Positions 15,925 to 32,000 are shown, numbered from the stretch's first letter. The stretch: DNA of 32,000 nt from an uncultured Hyphomicrobiales bacterium (GCA_903902915.1 CAIUWR010000039.1:7594-39593); one strand, 5' to 3'. The notes: generated by a model from the sequence alone, not told the origin. Program-made: numbers and translations.

Positions 15925-15979
15925 TGGTGCTGCGAGACAGGATTGAACTGTCGACCTCTCCATTACCAATTAAATATAG
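15925..15979 (-). repeat. att-type direct repeat, copy 1: 3' 45 nt of tRNA-Thr(GGU) (positions 32-76 including CCA) plus 10 nt of extension
   Basis: The reverse complement is TTGGTAA-TGGAG-AGGTC-GACAG-TTCAATC-CTGTC-TCGCAGC-A-CCA. This folds as anticodon loop (GGT), 3' anticodon stem, variable loop, complete T-arm, 3' acceptor strand, discriminator and CCA. The 5' half of the tRNA is absent. It is identical to 22966-23010. Confidence 0.85.
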
Positions 15980-16060: not shown

Positions 16061-16275
16061 ATTTCCTACGAACATACTAGAACTTAACAATTAGGAAAGC
16101 ACCTCAGTCATAGACTATTTATATCGATAAAACAGATATTTGGACACAAATTCTGCTTCTCTAATTGCTCTAAATCAGCAAACAAAAAACTTTCATCGCC
16201 GAGCACGATTATGCTTTCTTTCCTACCAAGATGCTATTATCTGGATTGGCTGTCCACTCGATAGGAGACAGCAAA

Positions 16276-16719
16276 ATGGCTCACCTAAAGTCCCTCACAT
16301 TCACTGTCGCTCCCCAGCAGATTGCTCGAAATCCTAAGCTGGTTCGTCGGCAGCGGCTCATCGACCGCCTCGAAGAGCAACAGAAGCTTGTAGCCGATCC
16401 AGCTTTCACCGTGCTGGTCCGCCGATGGGTGAAAGATCCTGACGGTATCAAGCAGCCCGTGGATCGGCACAGGCGGGTGAAGCCTTGGTGGAAGGCTGAT
16501 GGTGCTGGTAATCTCGTGCTTGTGCTGAAGAGCGGCTTGAAGACCATAGAGATCGAAAAGGGAAAGCCAGGTATCGTCGTCGGGGCTCTAGGGCGGCTGG
16601 AGGCGGTTCTGACGACCTTAATAGCCGCTGCTAAGGCTGGGGAGCTTGATGGTGCTCTGGAGGCTGCCAGCGGCTCTGGCGATGGGCGTGGTGTGCCTGG
16701 GCGGGCGAAGGCGGCGTGA
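16276..16719 (+). CDS. hypothetical protein (MAHL... family), paralogous to 23225..23689
   Basis: ATG at 16276 with AGGAGA upstream. It shares MAHL, RVKPWW/RVKEWW and AGELD blocks with the island-2 protein and is followed by a strong terminator. Confidence 0.7.
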   Translation: MAHLKSLTFTVAPQQIARNPKLVRRQRLIDRLEEQQKLVADPAFTVLVRRWVKDPDGIKQPVDRHRRVKPWWKADGAGNLVLVLKSGLKTIEIEKGKPGIVVGALGRLEAVLTTLIAAAKAGELDGALEAASGSGDGRGVPGRAKAA

Positions 16720-16790: not shown

Positions 16791-17525
16791 ATGGACGCCG
16801 AGGGCAAACGTAATCCGACTTGGACCCGAGATGAGCTTATCCTCACTTTGGACTTCTATGTCCAATGCCAAGGGAACCCCCCAGCCAAAGATAGCAAACC
16901 GATAAAAGAGCTATCGGATTTATTGAATGGATTGGGTAATGCTTCCAACAAAATTTCGGACAAGTTCCGGAATATAAATGGCGTATATATGAAAATTATG
17001 AATTTCAGACGCTTCGATCCTCAATATGCGTCTAAAGGCGCAGTAGGTCTAAGCCGGGGTGGAAAGGGCGATGAGGAAGTTTGGAACGAGTTTATAAATC
17101 GACCTCTTGTTCTCAAAGCGGTGGCTTCGTCAATTCGTGCCAACCTATCGCAAGAACCCGAAACTCAAGAACAGCTTTCAGAAGAACTAGAAATAGCCGA
17201 GGCTGAAGAAGGTCATATTCTAACTCGAATTCATTTATTTCGGGAACGTAATCGTGAATTGGTCAAGAAGAAAAAAGCCGACACATTGAAGCGCACGGGC
17301 TCCTTATCTTGTGAGGTGTGTTCCTTTGACTTTGCAAAAGCATACGGCGTTAGGGGGGAAGGCTTTGCTGAGGTTCATCATACAAAACCGCTACACACCC
17401 TCCAGCCAGGCACCAAAACCAAGCTTGAGGACCTTGCAGTTCTCTGCGCTAACTGCCACCGAATGGTGCACGCTAAAAAACCTTGGCTTGAGATTATCGA
17501 GCTAAAAAATATGCTCGAAAAGTGA
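16791..17525 (+). CDS. HNH endonuclease, McrA/COG3183-like putative restriction nuclease
   Basis: The C-terminal region (CEVCSFDF...GFAEVHHTKPL...LAVLCANCHRMVH) is a CxxC...HH...CxxCH HNH zinc-finger nuclease motif arranged as in E. coli McrA. The N-terminal region (RNINGVYMKIMNFRRFDP...EEVWNEF) resembles predicted HNH restriction enzymes. Confidence 0.8.
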   Translation: MDAEGKRNPTWTRDELILTLDFYVQCQGNPPAKDSKPIKELSDLLNGLGNASNKISDKFRNINGVYMKIMNFRRFDPQYASKGAVGLSRGGKGDEEVWNEFINRPLVLKAVASSIRANLSQEPETQEQLSEELEIAEAEEGHILTRIHLFRERNRELVKKKKADTLKRTGSLSCEVCSFDFAKAYGVRGEGFAEVHHTKPLHTLQPGTKTKLEDLAVLCANCHRMVHAKKPWLEIIELKNMLEK

Positions 17526-22965: not shown

Positions 22966-23020
22966 TGGTGCTGCGAGACAGGATTGAACTGTCGACCTCT
23001 CCATTACCAAAAAAATATAG
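22966..23020 (-). repeat. att-type direct repeat, copy 2: 3' 45 nt of tRNA-Thr(GGU) plus 10 nt of extension
   Basis: 22966-23010 is identical to 15925-15969. The next 10 nt match 8/10. The 5' half of the tRNA is again absent. Confidence 0.85.
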
Positions 23021-23224: not shown

Positions 23225-23689
23225 CTATTTCTTGCCCCCTGCCCGCTTATCAACTTTCGTTTTCACAAACTGCCTGTCTTTGGACGCCGCAGCCAACTCC
23301 GTGTCCAACTCACCTGCGTCTACTGCCTTCAAAACAGTGGTGATTGTGTTGGGCAAGTCAGCAAGTGAGCCAACCTCAATAGCAGCCATCCCGTTGGCTA
23401 TGGGCAGCAGCTTGGCGCCGTAGCGCACTGTGAGCAGCACTGAGCCCGCCACATTCTTACACCACCACTCCTTAACCCGCACAGGGCGTTGGACACGGTG
23501 AGGCTCTCCCTGCCCATCCACAGTATCCACCCAACGCATACGCCTATACGGACTGCCGCCCAACTGTGCCTCCGCCAAGCAGAGCTGCTCCTGTAGCTTT
23601 ACAATCAGCTTGTGCCTGCGGCGCTCCTCCGCAGTTGTAGGATTGAAGTTGGGCTTTGCTACGACTTTCAGTGTTTCCAAATGTGCCAC
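23225..23689 (-). CDS. hypothetical protein (MAHL... family), paralogous to 16276..16719
   Basis: 154 aa with shared blocks MAHLETLK, RPVRVKEWW, AIEVG and AGELD. Confidence 0.7.
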   Translation of the reverse strand: MAHLETLKVVAKPNFNPTTAEERRRHKLIVKLQEQLCLAEAQLGGSPYRRMRWVDTVDGQGEPHRVQRPVRVKEWWCKNVAGSVLLTVRYGAKLLPIANGMAAIEVGSLADLPNTITTVLKAVDAGELDTELAAASKDRQFVKTKVDKRAGGKK

Positions 23690-25794: not shown

Positions 25795-26361
25795 ATGAAG
25801 CAAGCAAGAACGCTCACAGACAAACAGCTCAAGCAAGTACTATCCCACTGCTCCACCCGCCACCATGCAGCAAGAGATCGCGCTATAGTGCTGTTCAGTT
25901 TCTTAGCTGGCCTGCGTGCCAAGGAGATAGCAGCGCTCACTTTAGCGAATGTGGTAGCGGACGATGGCAAAGTCCGTGATGAGTTCACTTTGTCACCGCA
26001 ACAGTCGAAGGGGCGTAAAGCCAGACGGGTCTTCATCAATGACCGACTCCAGAAAGAAATCACTCTCTATCTCAAGCAAGTGAAGCTACGAGCAATATGC
26101 CCAGCTCTTTTCCAATCCCAAAAAGGAAGTCACTTCTCCGCCAACACCATGTGCCAGTTGCTGCTACGCATTTATGATGAGGCAGGCTTTTCGGACGCAA
26201 CTAGCCATACTGGCAGGAGGTCAATGATTACGGCATTGGCAGCAAAGGGCATCGGGGTGCGTGTATTGCAGACATTAGCAGGACACTCATCCATCAGCAC
26301 AACGCAACGTTACATAGACGTGAACGACCAGCAGTTGCGGGCGGCAGTGGAACTAGCTTGA
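25795..26361 (+). CDS. small tyrosine recombinase (catalytic domain only, 188 aa)
   Basis: All catalytic signatures are present: AGLRAKEI (Arg I), SKGRKARRV (Lys beta-hairpin), SHTGRRS (HxxR) and GHSSISTTQRYI (His/Tyr). There is no N-terminal core-binding domain. Confidence 0.85.
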   Translation: MKQARTLTDKQLKQVLSHCSTRHHAARDRAIVLFSFLAGLRAKEIAALTLANVVADDGKVRDEFTLSPQQSKGRKARRVFINDRLQKEITLYLKQVKLRAICPALFQSQKGSHFSANTMCQLLLRIYDEAGFSDATSHTGRRSMITALAAKGIGVRVLQTLAGHSSISTTQRYIDVNDQQLRAAVELA

Positions 26362-26511: not shown

Positions 26512-27564
26512 ATGAAAGCGGCTATTCCTGATTTTCGACACCAATCCAGTCGATTCTCTGGATTCAAAATGTTTTATGAGTTTCATTACACGACCAATGA
26601 TTGCTCACCTGACATTGCAGTTGAGACGTGGCTGGCTAATAAGCTTGATTTTGATTTTGAACAAAGATGCGTACTGGCACTGTTTCAGGGCGCTGTGTAT
26701 TCAGGACCAATAGAGACAATCTTTGCGACTCAGTTTCCTAAGCTGACAGGGTCAATGGACAATCTCATATCCTTCTACAAAGATAATAAGGCTAGGATGG
26801 TCTTTTCGTCTGATTGCAAATACCGAAAGGTTTTTTTTGAACAGTTCCTCACCTCAGTGGCCAAATCCGTGTCGCACTACGGTAGCCTTGGCCAGCTGGT
26901 CGCTTCCTGCTTTGATTCAGACGATAGAACCGCGAACTATCGCAAGCTTCAGCGTCTGTGTGTTGACGAATGGTACCAATGGGGTCGTATGGGTCACTGG
27001 TGTTTTGCTGAGGCACTGTATAGCTTTGTCAAAGCACCTATCACTCCACCAACGATGGAGTTCATCGACGGTAAAAGTCATAGAGCGGGTTGGGCATTTT
27101 GCCTTAACCGTGATGATTTAACCCACGATAAAATATCACGAGCTGATTGTGATTATCTAGAACAAGAAGCTGCGAGATTCATTGCTAATCTCAAACACCC
27201 AAATGCAAACTACTTTACGTTAGAGACAGCCTGCTGCAACTACAAACGTCAACATAAAGGCAGTCGTTATGGAGGCTGCTACATTGACGAGCAGTACGAT
27301 GAAATAATATGGGCGCAGGAGAAATGGGCTGAATATAGCTCCTTGTGGGACACTTATATGCTGGGCAGGCAGGCGGTCCTCCCTGCTGCCCTGCTATATG
27401 AAAACAACACCCACCAATCTCAACCACGCTCCGAAGCAGCTTACCAAAAAAGTTGGACGAAATCCCTGAGCCAATATGGTAGGATTCCAAGAGTTGAGGC
27501 TTGGTTTGCCAACGAACCCCAAGTTTGGACTGACATCAAGAATCTGCCATTTGCTATCCACTAA
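26512..27564 (+). CDS. Trp/Tyr/Cys-rich helical protein; candidate aGPT-pyrophosphorylase / amino-acid:DNA transferase-like enzyme (function hypothetical)
   Basis: 350-aa ORF with coding-like composition. Its stop codon overlaps the convergent 1184-aa gene (CTAA/TTAG at 27561-27564). The functional guess comes only from gene neighbourhood (kinase plus dioxygenase) and the all-helical appearance. Confidence 0.7.
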   Translation: MKAAIPDFRHQSSRFSGFKMFYEFHYTTNDCSPDIAVETWLANKLDFDFEQRCVLALFQGAVYSGPIETIFATQFPKLTGSMDNLISFYKDNKARMVFSSDCKYRKVFFEQFLTSVAKSVSHYGSLGQLVASCFDSDDRTANYRKLQRLCVDEWYQWGRMGHWCFAEALYSFVKAPITPPTMEFIDGKSHRAGWAFCLNRDDLTHDKISRADCDYLEQEAARFIANLKHPNANYFTLETACCNYKRQHKGSRYGGCYIDEQYDEIIWAQEKWAEYSSLWDTYMLGRQAVLPAALLYENNTHQSQPRSEAAYQKSWTKSLSQYGRIPRVEAWFANEPQVWTDIKNLPFAIH

Positions 27565-30500
27565 GTCATACCAAAATAGCTCTTCATCTCAACCAATATC
27601 AGAGCCTGATGTTCGTCGGTGTTGTTCTCCATCGTCTTGACGCGACTAAAAAACGTTGGGGAGCCACATATGTTTCGGATTTTAGTGCGCTTGGCTTTTA
27701 TGAACTGTTCTGGCTGATTATCTTTACGTTTCTTATGACGAGCCTTGAGAACGGCGTCTGCGGCAACCACCTCAATGATTTTGAGTGAAACGCCCATCTC
27801 ATCAAGTGCTTCAAGAAAGCTGAAGTTAAACAAACGGTCTCCCTCAAAAATAACGTTTGATTTTATCTGCGTGAGAAAACTGAGTGCTACAGGCTGTACC
27901 GCCATGTCTAAACGGTCTGTGCCAGGAAAGTCTTCCCCATCCACATACTCGCCAAGAATGTAACAATCCAAATCCTTGTTATAAAGCGCCTTCAAGCCCT
28001 TGCCCGGCTTCAAACTTTCCCACTTGCCTGTTTCCTTTAGAAACGCTTTCATAAGCGTAGATTTACCAGTTGCGGGCAGTCCATTAATCGCCAGCACCTT
28101 CTTCTTCGTTTTAACACGAACGCTACTCTTCGGCTGCGCTACGTAATATGGTGGTATATCCTCAGCCTTTATCCCCTTCATTGGTTTCCCAGTTGAGATT
28201 GAGACGTATGGCAATGCATCGGTAATATAATCAAACCTCACAGTGCGCCCATCTTTCCTGAAATGAGCTAATCCAAGTTCATATGCTGATTCCTCATTTG
28301 GCTGGTATCTAGCATCAAGCTTAGGTCGGTTGATTACGCCGACGCAACTACTGACTGGGTGAAAACTTCGCACAGACAGAGATTTGTCTAACGCCTCAGC
28401 TTGATTGTCGGTGTCACCCTTTATGGATATCCCCCAAAGATACGAACTATGCTCCCGGCAAGCATCAAAACCACGCCTGATAACTCTTTGCTCAAAACTA
28501 TCTACGGATAGAATCGCATCTTTAGAAGAACCAGTCAGCCCATATATCCCATCAATGTCATCACGCAGATATACGATAGGGGTGTTTGGAGGGAAATACT
28601 CAGCGGGATGCATAGAGCTTATCTGGCTCCCAAAACCTACGTTCTTGCTATTTTTTTTGACTGTGATCGTTGCTGTTTTACGCAGGCTTGCATAACCATC
28701 CTTGCCCAGCCACTCTGTTATCTGTTCATTATTCCAACCCTGTTTCTGTAGGTCTACTATCTTCGTCGCCAACCGAACTTGATATGGCTTGTCCATTTCC
28801 ACACCATAGCTCTCTAACAAGCTCTCACCCGGTACGAATAGCGTTACACGGCGGGGGTCTATGTTCTGCTGTTTCAGATAGCGAAATATCTTTATAGGAC
28901 GGGGGTGTGCACCATCTGGCGATATCATCACGGCAATCTTGTAGCTGTTCCACTTGAAGTTTGGTCTCTCAGATTTGGGTGGATAGGCTTTCTCAGTGTT
29001 CTCTTTATATGCGAGCGTTGTTTTGGTGTAGCATACAACCGACAGACGACGCCCCTCCCCATTGAGTTGTTGGACGCCGTGGACCTTGCGGGAGTTAGCA
29101 ACAAAGACATCGCCATCACCAACTCTGAATGCGCAGCGATATTGGGGTATGACAAAATAACCACCCTCATATTTGCCTTCATTGAATACAGCGATGGTCG
29201 TCAAGCCACTGTTATGGTCACCGCTATCAATATGATAGTTCATGGCGGGCATATCATCGCCATAACGGTTGACGGCTAATGTGGTGAACACGCTGCCACC
29301 AAGCCGATGTTCCCGCAGGATCCGTGAGCTTAGGAACTTGGCCTGTTTCTGATAATCCGCCTTAGCCACCCTGTAATAGACAGTGTCACAACGCTTGGCC
29401 AATGCGAAGAACCCAGCTTTCACGTCCTCACTTGCGACCCCAGCTAAAGCGAACTGAGGCACTTTCGTCGTCTTATCGGGTATCCAGCCATAAGTGGATG
29501 ATGGGATGGGTTCACTACGTGGACGATCCCAATGCCCTTTTTTGCCATCACGCTCTTCGACCCACTTCTCATAAGTGCGCCCTTCATTAGACAGGCGATA
29601 TTTTAGGCCGCGCTTCTCAAAGTTGGCGATGGTCTTTTGGCTTATGGGGTGCGGCGATTCAGTTATCCTAGCACCACTTGTATCTTGGATGGCGCGGATG
29701 GATGTCACTGCTTCGGTACGGGCAGCGTCAGTGAAGATTTTTCTCTTCACGGCGCCAATGACAGGACGACGCCCAATCGTTAGGTCATATGGGCCTTCAA
29801 CAATAAAGTCCTTGTTGATGATGTCAGCATCAAAGAGATAATCGTAGTCCTTGTGCGTCGGCGTCTTGCCTATCAAATCGGCAGCAGCACGGTCCCCCAA
29901 GTCCTGCTCTGATATATAGAGCCTGACGTCGCCATCTGAGGATAACAGAGTGGCCGCGCGGCTGATGCTGAGTTCGCGTGGTGTGCTTGCTGTTGGCTTC
30001 TTCAGTTTGCCGGCTAGCACGATTAGGACAGCGTCTGCCACCATCTCAGCAATCTGGGTGGGTATCGCCTGTGCTAACAGCCGCGCCTTATCATTCTCTT
30101 TCGCTTTGATAGTGAATGCGTCGGGCATACCAATGAGGGCACTCATCTCTGAGGTGGTGAACATCCTGTCTTCTGCGGGATGTAGACAGCCATTGTCTCC
30201 AAGTTGCTTGGCTTTATAAAAGTCCAAGTTTGCACAGGGAGTGTCCCAAGCTGCCCGCATCACTTGGTGGCCTTTACTCTTTGGATAACCGCAGTCAGTG
30301 ACTGCCCTCAGCCCAAGACTTGCAAGTGTCGTCACTTTGGCTGGCTCTTTCCGCAAGAGCTTCCGTGCTGCCCACAAAGCCTTGCTGCGATGTGTCTGCT
30401 TCGTCCAGTAATCAGCATCAGAACGTCTGGTATCAACCTTACTCAGCACTGCCCTTACCGTGCTGTGGTCACTTGGCATTGGTAGTGGAAAGGCAAACTC

Positions 30501-31115
30501 CAACGCTTCGTCGGTGGTGACTTTGGCTTTTGCTGCTTGTTCCCTATGGACTACAAACACCACGCCATAGGATTTGGACACGGCGGAGCCATACTGGGCC
30601 GCGTCAACCACCCGACAGAATACAAAATAGTCGCGCTCTAGGTGTCCATCGCCCATTTTTTTATAGCGTAAAAAATCTACAGACCTATTGAATCGCGTCA
30701 GGTTCTCATTCGCCAGCAACTCCGGCGGCACATAACCCACAGCGACTTTAGGAGAGAGGCTGCGGACGATGTTGAAGAAGTCAGACAGCTGGGCGGGTGT
30801 ATTGGCGGTCTTGTCGGCTGGGCTGAGCTGGGCTGAGAAATCCAACAGGTCTAGCACGGCCCCTGCTGGTAGCCCCACCTTGGCCACAAGCTCAGCTCTG
30901 CCCTTCTCTTTGCGGTTGTTGAACCAACGAGCATCGGTGTTGTCGTGGGTGGTAGCAGGGAAGTTCGTGGCGAAGACCGACCTCTCCAAATCCTCTGTTT
31001 CAGTTCCATACAAAATCTGAAACCCTTTTGACCTGTAGGCAAATGCGGTTGTGCCGATTCCTGCTGAAAAGCAGGCAGCTGTGTAGGTGTTTTTCGCCAT
31101 CGCTGTTGCCTTCAT
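27561..31115 (-). CDS. 1184-aa multidomain DNA-modification protein: degenerate C5-MTase-like + TET/JBP-like 2OG-Fe(II) dioxygenase + DxD region + P-loop kinase
   Basis: It is an uninterrupted 3.5-kb ORF. The motifs are listed in the four domain features below. The start is at 31115 or at Met6 (31100). Confidence 0.9.
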   Translation of the reverse strand: MKATAMAKNTYTAACFSAGIGTTAFAYRSKGFQILYGTETEDLERSVFATNFPATTHDNTDARWFNNRKEKGRAELVAKVGLPAGAVLDLLDFSAQLSPADKTANTPAQLSDFFNIVRSLSPKVAVGYVPPELLANENLTRFNRSVDFLRYKKMGDGHLERDYFVFCRVVDAAQYGSAVSKSYGVVFVVHREQAAKAKVTTDEALEFAFPLPMPSDHSTVRAVLSKVDTRRSDADYWTKQTHRSKALWAARKLLRKEPAKVTTLASLGLRAVTDCGYPKSKGHQVMRAAWDTPCANLDFYKAKQLGDNGCLHPAEDRMFTTSEMSALIGMPDAFTIKAKENDKARLLAQAIPTQIAEMVADAVLIVLAGKLKKPTASTPRELSISRAATLLSSDGDVRLYISEQDLGDRAAADLIGKTPTHKDYDYLFDADIINKDFIVEGPYDLTIGRRPVIGAVKRKIFTDAARTEAVTSIRAIQDTSGARITESPHPISQKTIANFEKRGLKYRLSNEGRTYEKWVEERDGKKGHWDRPRSEPIPSSTYGWIPDKTTKVPQFALAGVASEDVKAGFFALAKRCDTVYYRVAKADYQKQAKFLSSRILREHRLGGSVFTTLAVNRYGDDMPAMNYHIDSGDHNSGLTTIAVFNEGKYEGGYFVIPQYRCAFRVGDGDVFVANSRKVHGVQQLNGEGRRLSVVCYTKTTLAYKENTEKAYPPKSERPNFKWNSYKIAVMISPDGAHPRPIKIFRYLKQQNIDPRRVTLFVPGESLLESYGVEMDKPYQVRLATKIVDLQKQGWNNEQITEWLGKDGYASLRKTATITVKKNSKNVGFGSQISSMHPAEYFPPNTPIVYLRDDIDGIYGLTGSSKDAILSVDSFEQRVIRRGFDACREHSSYLWGISIKGDTDNQAEALDKSLSVRSFHPVSSCVGVINRPKLDARYQPNEESAYELGLAHFRKDGRTVRFDYITDALPYVSISTGKPMKGIKAEDIPPYYVAQPKSSVRVKTKKKVLAINGLPATGKSTLMKAFLKETGKWESLKPGKGLKALYNKDLDCYILGEYVDGEDFPGTDRLDMAVQPVALSFLTQIKSNVIFEGDRLFNFSFLEALDEMGVSLKIIEVVAADAVLKARHKKRKDNQPEQFIKAKRTKIRNICGSPTFFSRVKTMENNTDEHQALILVEMKSYFGMT
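27564..28103 (-). other. domain: P-loop kinase-like (aa 1005-1184)
   Basis: Walker A: VLAINGLPATGKSTLM (nt 28056-28082). A hydrophobic strand plus acidic residues (CYILGEYVDGED), then GTDRLD and IFEGDRLF. The size is typical of small nucleotide or nucleic-acid kinases. Confidence 0.65.
28161..28943 (-). other. domain: unassigned region with a GT-A-like beta1 strand and DxD motif (aa 725-985)
   Basis: YKIAVMISPDG...VTLFVPGES...PIVYLRDDIDGIYG (D852-D853-x-D855). The pattern is reminiscent of nucleotide-sugar (GT-A) transferases. Confidence 0.35.
29001..29438 (-). other. domain: 2OG-Fe(II) dioxygenase double-stranded beta-helix core, TET/JBP-like (aa 560-705)
   Basis: NYHIDSGD (H628-x-D630), GGYFVIP, GDGDVFVANSRKVHGV (H679) and GEGRRLSVVCY (R689/R690 about 10 residues after the distal His). 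H628 maps to nt 29232-29234. Confidence 0.7.
29961..31100 (-). other. domain: C5 DNA methyltransferase-like fold with degenerate catalytic motifs (aa 6-385)
   Basis: Motif I-like ACFSAGIGTTAFA and TETEDLERSVFATNFP. The motif IV position reads DLLDFSAQLS (no Pro-Cys). The motif VI position reads PKVAVGYVPPELL (no ENV). The motif VIII position reads AAQYGSAVSKSYGVVFVV (no QxRxR). The motif IX/X-like region (MFTTSEMSALIGMPDAF and AQAIPTQIAEMVADAV) is retained. Confidence 0.6.
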
Positions 31116-31172: not shown

Positions 31173-32000
31173 ATGGAAAGAAACTCACCACGTCCACGAG
31201 AGTTGGCGCAAAGGGTCATAAAGTCCGTCAAGGACAGTGTCGCGGCAAGCTTGGACACTTGCTTCGCTTTTGCAGAAGCTTGGACACTCTATTTAGAAGC
31301 TGGATGGACCGATAAGGACCTCCTCAGCTTTCTCAACCAACTCCATGCAGCACGTATTGGGCCAGACCCCGTAACACTAGGCAGGGACAAAGAGGACCGG
31401 CTCATTATCGGCACATCGTCAGCATCGTTCTACATGATGAAACGCATTGGTGAGAGCGCACTGCTGAAAGACAAAGAAATCAGGACAGCCTGCCTCATCA
31501 ACAGCCGCAGTAGCCTATACGACCTCATACAGCTCTATGAAGAGGCATGTGAGAGAGGCAGCGGGTCTGCTGTAAAAAAAGAAGAGCGGGCTAGAGAAAA
31601 AGTGCTTTCGCTGCTGACCGCGCACGGTGAAGGATTGACACGTAAGTTGATTGCTGAGGCACGTAAACAGCTTAGCAAACAGCGCCAATCCCATAAACCC
31701 AAAGACCTCCTACATAAAGCGCAGCCAAATGAAGGTGGCTTTTCGCTAGCAGAGCTGCTGGAGAGCGGCGCAAGTTTTCAAGAAATACTCCTGACGCCAT
31801 CTGCATTGGTTCTGGATGCGATTGAAGAGATGTCGATTGCTGATTTGGAGGAGCGGCTTGGATTGTGCAACCTGTCGTCTGGAAATTGTATTGAGCGTTG
31901 TTCAAGAATTCTGGCATCCCCACTTTATATATGCCTTTGTGTCAGCGCCCCACTTTTCATCGATTTCGACGAGGATGGCGCTAACGAGCCGCATGAGAGA
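31173..32000 (+). CDS. hypothetical protein, 5' part only (ORF runs off the right end of the window)
   Basis: ATG at 31173, then 276 codons without a stop to position 32000 (my own translation: MERNSPRPRELAQRVIKSVKDS...). It is absent from the supplied ORF track, presumably because it has no stop. It is divergent from the 1184-aa gene across only 57 bp. Confidence 0.55.
   Translation, partial: MERNSPRPRELAQRVIKSVKDSVAASLDTCFAFAEAWTLYLEAGWTDKDLLSFLNQLHAARIGPDPVTLGRDKEDRLIIGTSSASFYMMKRIGESALLKDKEIRTACLINSRSSLYDLIQLYEEACERGSGSAVKKEERAREKVLSLLTAHGEGLTRKLIAEARKQLSKQRQSHKPKDLLHKAQPNEGGFSLAELLESGASFQEILLTPSALVLDAIEEMSIADLEERLGLCNLSSGNCIERCSRILASPLYICLCVSAPLFIDFDEDGANEPHER

Follow-up and report, generated by a model that had tools for sequence, protein, structure and literature searches.

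A 32,000-nucleotide (nt) stretch of DNA from an uncultured Hyphomicrobiales bacterium (GCA_903902915.1 CAIUWR010000039.1:7594-39593; the whole stretch is called the window below) contains an open reading frame (ORF) of 1184 amino acids (aa) at 27561..31115 on the minus strand. From the ORF list, Pfam and an alignment with eight homologues (A2), its product consists of a C5-cytosine methyltransferase (C5-MTase) fold, a linker, a TET/JBP dioxygenase, a domain resembling the TET-associated glycosyltransferases (TAGT) and a P-loop kinase. The N-terminal domain (aa 6-385; 29961..31100, minus strand), called the MT-like domain here, is supported as a pseudo-enzyme, that is, an intact C5-MTase fold predicted from its sequence to be unable to methylate cytosine. 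We think it rather probable that this domain is a conserved N-terminal module of a single-polypeptide thymine-hypermodification enzyme, where it likely serves in DNA binding or site selection, or in activation of the oxidase.

Fold and catalytic motifs of the MT-like domain

The membership of the MT-like domain in the C5-MTase fold and homology family (PF00145), with both a catalytic domain and a target recognition domain (TRD), was confirmed by four approaches. The Pfam family DNA_methylase (PF00145) spans aa 18-362 and profile positions 8-321 of 324, with an E-value of 4.9e-12 and a score of 46.3 bits (cut-off 22). When a profile of the clade (A5) was compared by hhalign with a profile of active methyltransferases (MTases) including M.HhaI (A6), 341 columns were aligned with a probability of 100% and an E-value of 1.4e-50. 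The AlphaFold2 (AF2) model, built from a 28-sequence alignment, had a pLDDT of 88.3 and a pTM of 0.88, and its sole internal low-confidence segment (98-105) is the remnant of the catalytic loop. A Foldseek search of the PDB gave 8YF3, the phage DNA cytosine C5-carboxymethyltransferase SpCmoX, as the top match (E-value 8.5e-22; target-normalised TM 0.84), followed by MET1, DNMT1, M.HhaI, DNMT2 and M.HaeIII. The matches to 8YF3, MET1, DNMT1 and M.HhaI all had E-values of 1e-13 or lower, and 8YF3 was also the only PDB sequence match under 1e-3. The first-pass annotation of the window, made from the sequence alone, had placed the domain at 29961-31100 on the minus strand, and these coordinates were right.

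When 1.84 billion representative proteins were searched exhaustively, 91 relatives were found. The nearest are long proteins (960-1450 aa) that share the N-terminal domain, and the next group consists of standalone enzymes of about 390 aa. Scans of further collections added 17 loci, of which 14 are metagenomic and three genomic (two metagenome-assembled genomes (MAGs) of Beijerinckiaceae with 97% and 78% identity, and one MAG of Alphaproteobacteria), and no relative was found in a scan of the IMG/VR viral contigs. The long proteins, the standalone relatives and M.HhaI were aligned using MAFFT. The M.HhaI sequence used as a ruler gives the canonical C81, E119, Q161, R163 and R165, which are invariant between it and the active relatives from the database. 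The motif register obtained with MAFFT, with hhalign and from the nearest active relatives agreed throughout. Four of the nearest active relatives (P0019, P0020, P0022 and P0026; about 680-700 aa) carry an N-terminal PP-loop or asparagine-synthetase-like domain in front of an intact C5-MTase, and may be CmoY-CmoX-type fusions for carboxymethylcytosine amidation.

Motif IV of the MT-like domain reads D92-F-S-A-Q-L97-S98 (30822..30842, minus strand), and both MAFFT and hhalign put Leu97 in the Cys81 column and Gln96 in the Pro80 column of M.HhaI. The earlier reading of FSAQ at the nucleophile position thus stands as to the missing Pro-Cys nucleophile, but its register was two residues off: Cys81 falls on Leu97 and not on Ala95, because the alignment with the nearest active relatives is gapless here (DGSPPC against DFSAQL). 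At motif VI, Y128-V129-P130 (30726..30734, minus strand) replaces Glu119-Asn-Val, and at motif VIII, V179-S-K181-S-Y183 (30567..30581, minus strand) replaces Gln161-x-Arg163-x-Arg165; MAFFT and hhalign gave the same result in both cases, in agreement with what the first-pass annotation had read by eye. An apparent survival of ENV as ANENL, seen in a pairwise phmmer alignment with 8YF3, was rejected as a mis-register, since E137 is restricted to the three closest sequences and MAFFT and hhalign place ENV on YVP.

These replacements are found in the whole clade. Among 25 aligned clade sequences, some of them from near-identical loci, none has Cys in the Cys81 column, and ENV is absent from all 25, the clade pattern being [YFWLIV]-[GACVT]-[PS]. 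Gln161 is replaced by Val or Ile, again in 25 of 25, within a motif VIII pattern of [VI]-x-[KR]-x-[YLFM]; one sub-group reads V-R-T-R-R. The nearest standalone relatives keep SPPC, ENV and PQxRxR. In the clade, the catalytic loop that follows motif IV lacks 6-12 residues compared with active enzymes. A survey of homologues had been proposed for the loss of the Cys, and it identified a clade-wide loss (25/25) rather than a one-off decay. It had also been considered that C167 or another Cys could be catalytic. This was not borne out: over the whole domain at most three of 12 clade sequences share a Cys in any column, and every Cys stands in a non-conserved column.

The alignments thus show that three key residues are gone from the MT-like domain: the nucleophilic Cys, the Glu responsible for protonating N3 and the Arg holding O2. 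The proposal that the domain is catalytically dead is supported, since all three catalytic motifs are replaced across the clade and the catalytic loop is shortened. The nearest structure illustrates the difference. SpCmoX (Synechococcus phage S-B43; PMC12783734) shares with the MT-like domain a helical insert after motif III, an LDxLR segment and the TRD segments FPxP and LPKNP. Unlike the MT-like domain, it has Cys98, ENV, QxRxR and Arg350 for carboxy-S-adenosylmethionine (Cx-SAM), and it is active on GC sites; at the same positions the MT-like domain has Leu, YVP, VSKSY and Gln, with a shorter catalytic loop. The annotation of the close homologue P0001 by JGI as a "site-specific DNA-cytosine methylase" is almost certainly wrong and would mislead methylome predictions.

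The cofactor-side motifs have fared differently. Motif I, F16-S-A-G-I-G-T22 (31050..31070, minus strand), keeps its G-x-G, with G19 and G21 invariant in the clade profile. The motif II acid, Glu40 of M.HhaI, corresponds to E39 and is Glu or Asp in every aligned sequence that covers this motif. The motif III Asp (Asp60 of M.HhaI) corresponds to D61, is present in most sequences and is followed by R-W-F-x-N67-R-K69-x-x-G72 (30900..30935, minus strand). The claim that the motif I region is kept was thus correct (S17-A-G-I-G21, together with E39 and D61). The companion claim on motifs IX and X held for motif IX, where Arg272 and Glu278 of M.HhaI are kept as R317 and E323, and in part for motif X. 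The latter reads A348-Q-A-I-P352 (30060..30074, minus strand; GN[SA]V in active enzymes), so that Gly303-Asn304 corresponds to A348-Q349, and the Asn304 position is not conserved in the clade. The Phe18 position is Ser17 in the window protein and Ser or Asn in the clade, the Trp41 position is likewise not conserved, and the pocket residues are hydrophobic.

Retained G-x-G, motif II acid and motif III Asp residues are compatible with binding of S-adenosylmethionine (AdoMet) or a related ligand. The MT-like domain might then be a metabolic sensor or switch of the oxidase, or it might work without a Cys as a transferase on the hydroxymethyl group, for instance in the O-methylation of 5-hydroxymethyluracil (5hmU), and O-methyltransferases have indeed been reported in the gene neighbourhoods of 5-methylpyrimidine dioxygenases (5mYOX) (PMC13229309). 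We regard this as very improbable. The adenine-stacking Phe18 is Ser or Asn, the Trp41 and Asn304 positions vary and the pocket is hydrophobic; Rossmann-fold motifs can persist for structural reasons alone, and the kinase, amino acid:DNA transferase (AADT) and TAGT domains described below already compete for the same hydroxyl.

Domain architecture, substrate and proposed pathway

The linker and the TET/JBP dioxygenase occupy aa 386-720 (28956..29960, minus strand). Pfam matches Tet_JBP (PF12851) at aa 571-698 with 44.6 bits (cut-off 34.9), and the iron ligands H628-x-D630 and H679 and the 2-oxoglutarate residue R690 are intact and invariant in the full-length alignment (A2). The TAGT-like domain (aa 721-1000; 28116..28955, minus strand) has no Pfam match of its own in the window protein and was assigned by its alignment with the PF20691-positive region of P0002, P0006, P0007 and P0012. 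The P-loop kinase domain (aa 1001-1184; 27564..28115, minus strand) has the Walker A sequence G-L-P-A-T-G-K-S-T and is probably of the Ploopntkinase3 or 5-hydroxymethyldeoxyuridine (5-hmdU) DNA kinase type; aa 1006-1150 match AAA_33 and Ploopntkinase3 (PF18751), both under the Pfam cut-offs. None of the TET region, the AADT and the kinase had a match in sequence searches of the PDB, and PADLOC and PHROGs returned only generic MTase, integrase and kinase matches. The top phage match of the kinase is from Caulobacter phage Cr30, and its gene neighbourhood was uninformative.

An AADT gene (formerly aGPT-Pplase) is the convergent neighbour of the main gene (26512..27564, plus strand) and matches PF18724 with an E-value of 1.3e-18 and 68 bits (cut-off 26.2). 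Its closest phage homologues belong to "aGPT-Pplase clade 2" of ViI-like phages, with 27% identity.

Pfam searches of the homologues and the full-length alignment identified a constant core of MT-like domain, linker and TET/JBP, followed by a TAGT-type domain. Four representatives (P0002, P0006, P0007 and P0012) consist of the MT-like, TET and TAGT domains. The window protein, P0001 and P0005 have a kinase in addition, and in P0003 (1449 aa) the kinase is followed by a fused AADT domain. Wherever a kinase is present, the acidic TAGT motif F-[IM]-D-D-D is broken and reads R-D-D (window), R-D-N, A-G-D or K-G-D, which suggests that the glycosyltransferase has been superseded. The TAGT-like domain at aa 721-1000 may be a second dead domain within the same polypeptide, and in the window protein and P0001 it carries an insertion of about 45 aa.

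In P0016, a protein of 606 aa, TET/JBP is fused to an MTase whose SPPC, ENV and QxRxR are all intact, and the neighbours of its gene are a second DNA_methylase gene, an EVE-domain gene, an integrase and a resolvase. As P0016 keeps the catalytic motifs in spite of the fusion, fusion alone does not cause their loss. The evolutionary path may have led from an active MT-TET protein of this kind to a dead-MT-TET-glycosyltransferase, and then to proteins in which a kinase and an AADT were gained while the glycosyltransferase motif decayed. Read from the sequences, this may be a switch of substrate from 5-methylcytosine (5mC) to thymine that has been caught in sequence.

Published work points to the substrate of such a set of domains. 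The 5-hmdU DNA kinase and the AADT build thymidine hypermodifications on 5hmdU (PMC5889632, PMC8989533). Viral contigs with TET_JBP in place of a deoxyuridine monophosphate (dUMP) hydroxymethylase, and without a source of 5mC, were predicted to form their 5hmU in situ (PMC8989533). Among phage 5mYOX, those associated with P-loop kinases and AADTs act as T-dioxygenases, and some require the accessory activator ParB, though only on double-stranded DNA (PMC13229309). In the window and the 17 related loci no second C5-MTase was found when a profile of active MTases was run against six-frame translations, the MT-like domain being the only match. Neither a dUMP hydroxymethylase nor ParB was among the neighbour Pfam matches listed for the window and these loci (in one scan, 25 of 39 families). 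Thymine as the substrate, suggested by the first-pass annotation in preference to 5mC, is thus well supported by context (kinase, AADT, no companion C5-MTase and the published TET/JBP work), though not proven.

In the proposed pathway, the TET/JBP domain would convert thymine in DNA to 5hmU, the C-terminal P-loop kinase would phosphorylate the hydroxymethyl group to give 5-phosphomethyl-U, and the neighbouring AADT would swap the phosphate for an amino acid or amine. In the kinase-less relatives the TAGT domain would instead glycosylate 5hmU, giving a base-J-like product. The MT-like domain would provide DNA binding or site selection, or would activate the oxidase on duplex DNA in another way. 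Like the choice of thymine as substrate, the reaction order and the function given to the MT-like domain are inferred.

The system resembles the phage thymidine hypermodification clusters (PMC8989533; PMC13229309) in combining TET/JBP with a kinase, probably of the Ploopntkinase3 type, and a PF18724 AADT, with neither an active C5-MTase nor a dUMP hydroxymethylase in the neighbourhood. It differs in that the phage clusters are made of separate genes, many of them with a ParB-like activator, whereas the window system is fused behind a dead C5-MTase domain, has no ParB among the neighbour matches and no viral contig match, and is hosted by small integrase/resolvase islands in bacterial chromosomes.

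In the case of base J in kinetoplastids, thymine is converted to 5hmU by JBP1 and JBP2, TET/JBP enzymes with an appended DNA-binding or remodelling domain, and is then glycosylated by a glucosyltransferase (PMC13229309). The members with MT-like, TET and TAGT domains parallel this pathway, with a TET/JBP enzyme that has an accessory domain and a following glycosylation. Unlike in the fused proteins, the base J glycosyltransferase is a separate protein, and the accessory domains (J-binding domain, SWI2/SNF2) are unrelated to the MT-like domain.

Retention and role of the MT-like domain

The MT-like domain is full-length in every locus whose 5' end is covered. Across sequences with 25-43% pairwise identity, 23 of its positions are invariant. 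Four of the residues that never vary in the fused clade are missing in active relatives, namely N138 and, within the R-W-F-x-N-R-K-x-x-G motif that follows motif III, N67, K69 and G72. Retention across this divergence, the new invariant residues and the confident fold argue for a retained function.

Several observations weigh against this, and against a thymine-modifying system as a whole. In the comparison of the window with locus L002, where counts are small, dN/dS was 0.39 in the MT-like domain and 0.05, 0.10 and 0.13 in the TET, TAGT-like and kinase domains, respectively (Fisher p = 0.003 on raw counts for the MT-like domain against the other domains). The mean pairwise identity is 31% in the MT-like domain and 60% in the TET core. 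Most members no longer have the conserved T-L motif of the TRD or the loop next to it, and this makes a role in reading sequence less likely. For Ploopntkinase3 the window protein scores 22.4 bits (cut-off 27); the aligned kinase domains of P0005 and P0003 pass this cut-off with 60.7 and 31.3 bits. TAGT-type glycosyltransferases and the first-characterised phage TETs act on 5hmC (5-hydroxymethylcytosine) and 5mC (PMC8256090), and 5mC could be provided in trans if the host genome encodes a methyltransferase at another site. The real targeting factor could also be the conserved protein of about 345 aa that is encoded beside the main gene (see below).

The high rate of change could mean that the MT-like domain is a functionless relic, kept for folding or solubility of the fusion or not yet deleted. 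It is the fastest-evolving part of the protein, its mean identity is low, and cofactor-contact positions such as Phe18 and Asn304 are not conserved. However, even a dN/dS of 0.39 lies far under 1, confidence in the AF2 model is high, and the domain persists at full length in all loci that cover the 5' end, despite identities of only 25-43%. The 23 invariant positions, with the clade-specific N67, K69, G72 and N138 among them, also do not fit a relic, and we consider this explanation unlikely.

The cytosine-directed activities of related proteins raise another alternative, in which the MT-like domain reads or flips 5mC made in trans by a methyltransferase of the host or the element, and 5mC is oxidised to 5hmC and then to a phosphorylated, aminated or glycosylated cytosine. 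The domain does descend from cytosine-specific enzymes, its nearest structure is the GC-specific SpCmoX (PMC12783734), TAGT and the clade A and B phage TETs act on 5mC or 5hmC (PMC8256090), and the sister protein P0016 appears to be an active MT-TET fusion. The residues that read the face of cytosine (Glu119, Arg165 and the Pro-Cys loop) are all replaced, though, neither the window nor any of the 17 loci has a C5-MTase gene, and the chemistry of kinase and AADT is known only for 5hmdU (PMC5889632, PMC8989533). We judge a reader of 5mC to be quite unlikely.

The first-pass annotation had proposed that the fold was co-opted as a base-flipping or sequence-targeting module. Co-option as such is suggested by the retention of the domain, whereas the shortened loop, the hydrophobic pocket and the loss of T-L argue against classical base flipping into the old pocket. 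A role as a DNA-binding or targeting module, a scaffold or an activator fits better than presentation of a base. As the preferred reading we tentatively put forward that the MT-like domain acts in DNA binding and targeting or in activation on duplex DNA. A more specific version, which we hold to be doubtful as it stands, is that the domain is a built-in module for engaging duplex DNA, the counterpart of the separate ParB activator of phage enzymes, and that it sets the sequence context in which a bacterial integrative element, and not a phage, writes its thymine hypermodification. If this is true, the protein would be a self-contained "writer" of four to five domains for a base-J-like or amino-acid-thymine mark in bacteria.

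A eukaryotic parallel at the level of the fold is DNMT3L, a C5-MTase fold that has lost its catalytic motifs and acts as a regulatory partner of another enzyme, as proposed for the MT-like domain. It differs in that its cofactor motifs are also lost and in that it stimulates an active methyltransferase and not an oxidase. TAGT, aGPT-Pplase and the P-loop kinase were reportedly defined by Iyer et al. 2013 (NAR), where such architectures may already be shown. We found no description of a Cys-less C5-MTase fold as the N-terminal module of TET/JBP-TAGT(-kinase(-AADT)) proteins on bacterial integrative elements, although Iyer et al. 2013 may depict it. Already known are the TET/JBP thymidine hypermodification clusters and inactive C5-MTs near phage TETs. 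The latter, of clades III-VI beside clade C/D phage TETs (Burke et al. 2021, PMC8256090), are MTase homologues without detectable activity that resemble the MT-like domain in being genetically coupled to TET/JBP, and TET89, the TET/JBP partner of one inactive C5-MT homologue, oxidises T (PMC8256090). Unlike the MT-like domain, they keep the catalytic Cys, have defects in motifs VIII-X and are encoded by separate genes; the MT-like domain has lost motifs IV, VI and VIII, keeps IX and part of X, and is fused.

Fusion to a dead MTase fold, presumed to bind DNA, would be a second answer to how T-dioxygenases are targeted or activated, beside the use of an accessory protein (PMC13229309). DNA labelling is a conceivable use of such an enzyme, as one polypeptide would put a bulky modification on thymine.

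Neighbouring genes and integrative elements

Divergent from the main gene lies a partner gene (31173..31872, plus strand) of a conserved family of about 345 aa, which was identified from an alignment across seven loci (A3; homologues P0092-P0101). Members of this family adjoin the main gene in nearly every locus, usually divergently. The window copy (31173-32000 region) matches its orthologues only to 31872 (aa ~233), where the blastn match with L002 also ends, and then diverges. The last ~130 nt of the window resemble pieces of unrelated ORFs on other contigs (P0103 and P0104). The divergence and this resemblance suggest that the partner gene was truncated by a rearrangement or by sequence of a repeated or mobile kind. 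The AF2 model of the partner with database homologues (A4) was poor (pLDDT 63), and its best Foldseek E-value was not below 0.49. A comparison of the partner profile with the PDB gave only spurious matches to repeat proteins, and a faint Pfam hint of MT-A70 (E-value ~0.1) was seen; neither was used.

On the other side of the AADT gene, a short tyrosine recombinase of 188 aa is encoded at 25795..26361 on the plus strand (PF00589, E-value 7e-29), with equivalents in L001, L009 and L018. The GC content of the window drops from about 65% to about 48% at about 15.9 kb. A 55-nt direct repeat is present at 15925-15979 and 22966-23020 (96% identical, 7041 nt apart) and resembles a minus-strand tRNA gene at its 3' end; ARAGORN found no intact tRNA in the window. 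The two copies are probably att sites of two tandem integrated elements, with the system located in the second.

Tyrosine integrases and resolvases occur in related loci, together with a short tyrosine recombinase of about 190 aa and DUF6641, and no phage structural genes were present among the neighbour Pfam matches listed for them. In the case of P0002, the system lies on an island of about 10 kb between ccm genes and ffh-rpsP-rimM-trmD in a 128-kb contig. We conclude that the system is carried on small integrative elements of Alphaproteobacteria and that the family is rare. Its location on chromosomal integrative elements and not on phages suggests that the DNA of bacteria or of mobile elements may be marked by thymine hypermodification as well.

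In L006 (contig Ga0208004_1001068, 10.7 kb), the contig starts within the main gene, with its C-terminal part, and an N-terminal part of this gene is found at the other end. This layout fits a circular element of about 10 kb, or an excised form, with integrase, resolvase, partner and main gene. DUF6641 genes occur once in each of the tandem elements of the window (16231-16719, plus strand; 23225-23689, minus strand) and also in the P0002 island (L018, 14953-15378), and apparently mark integrative elements of this family. An HNH endonuclease gene in the neighbouring element (16791-17525, plus strand) was weakly matched by PADLOC to methyl-directed restriction enzymes of Type IV (E-value 3.8e-6). 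An Acyl_transf_3 gene lies inside the P0002 island beside the short recombinase (L018, 7037-8086, minus strand), and its product could further decorate a glycosylated base.

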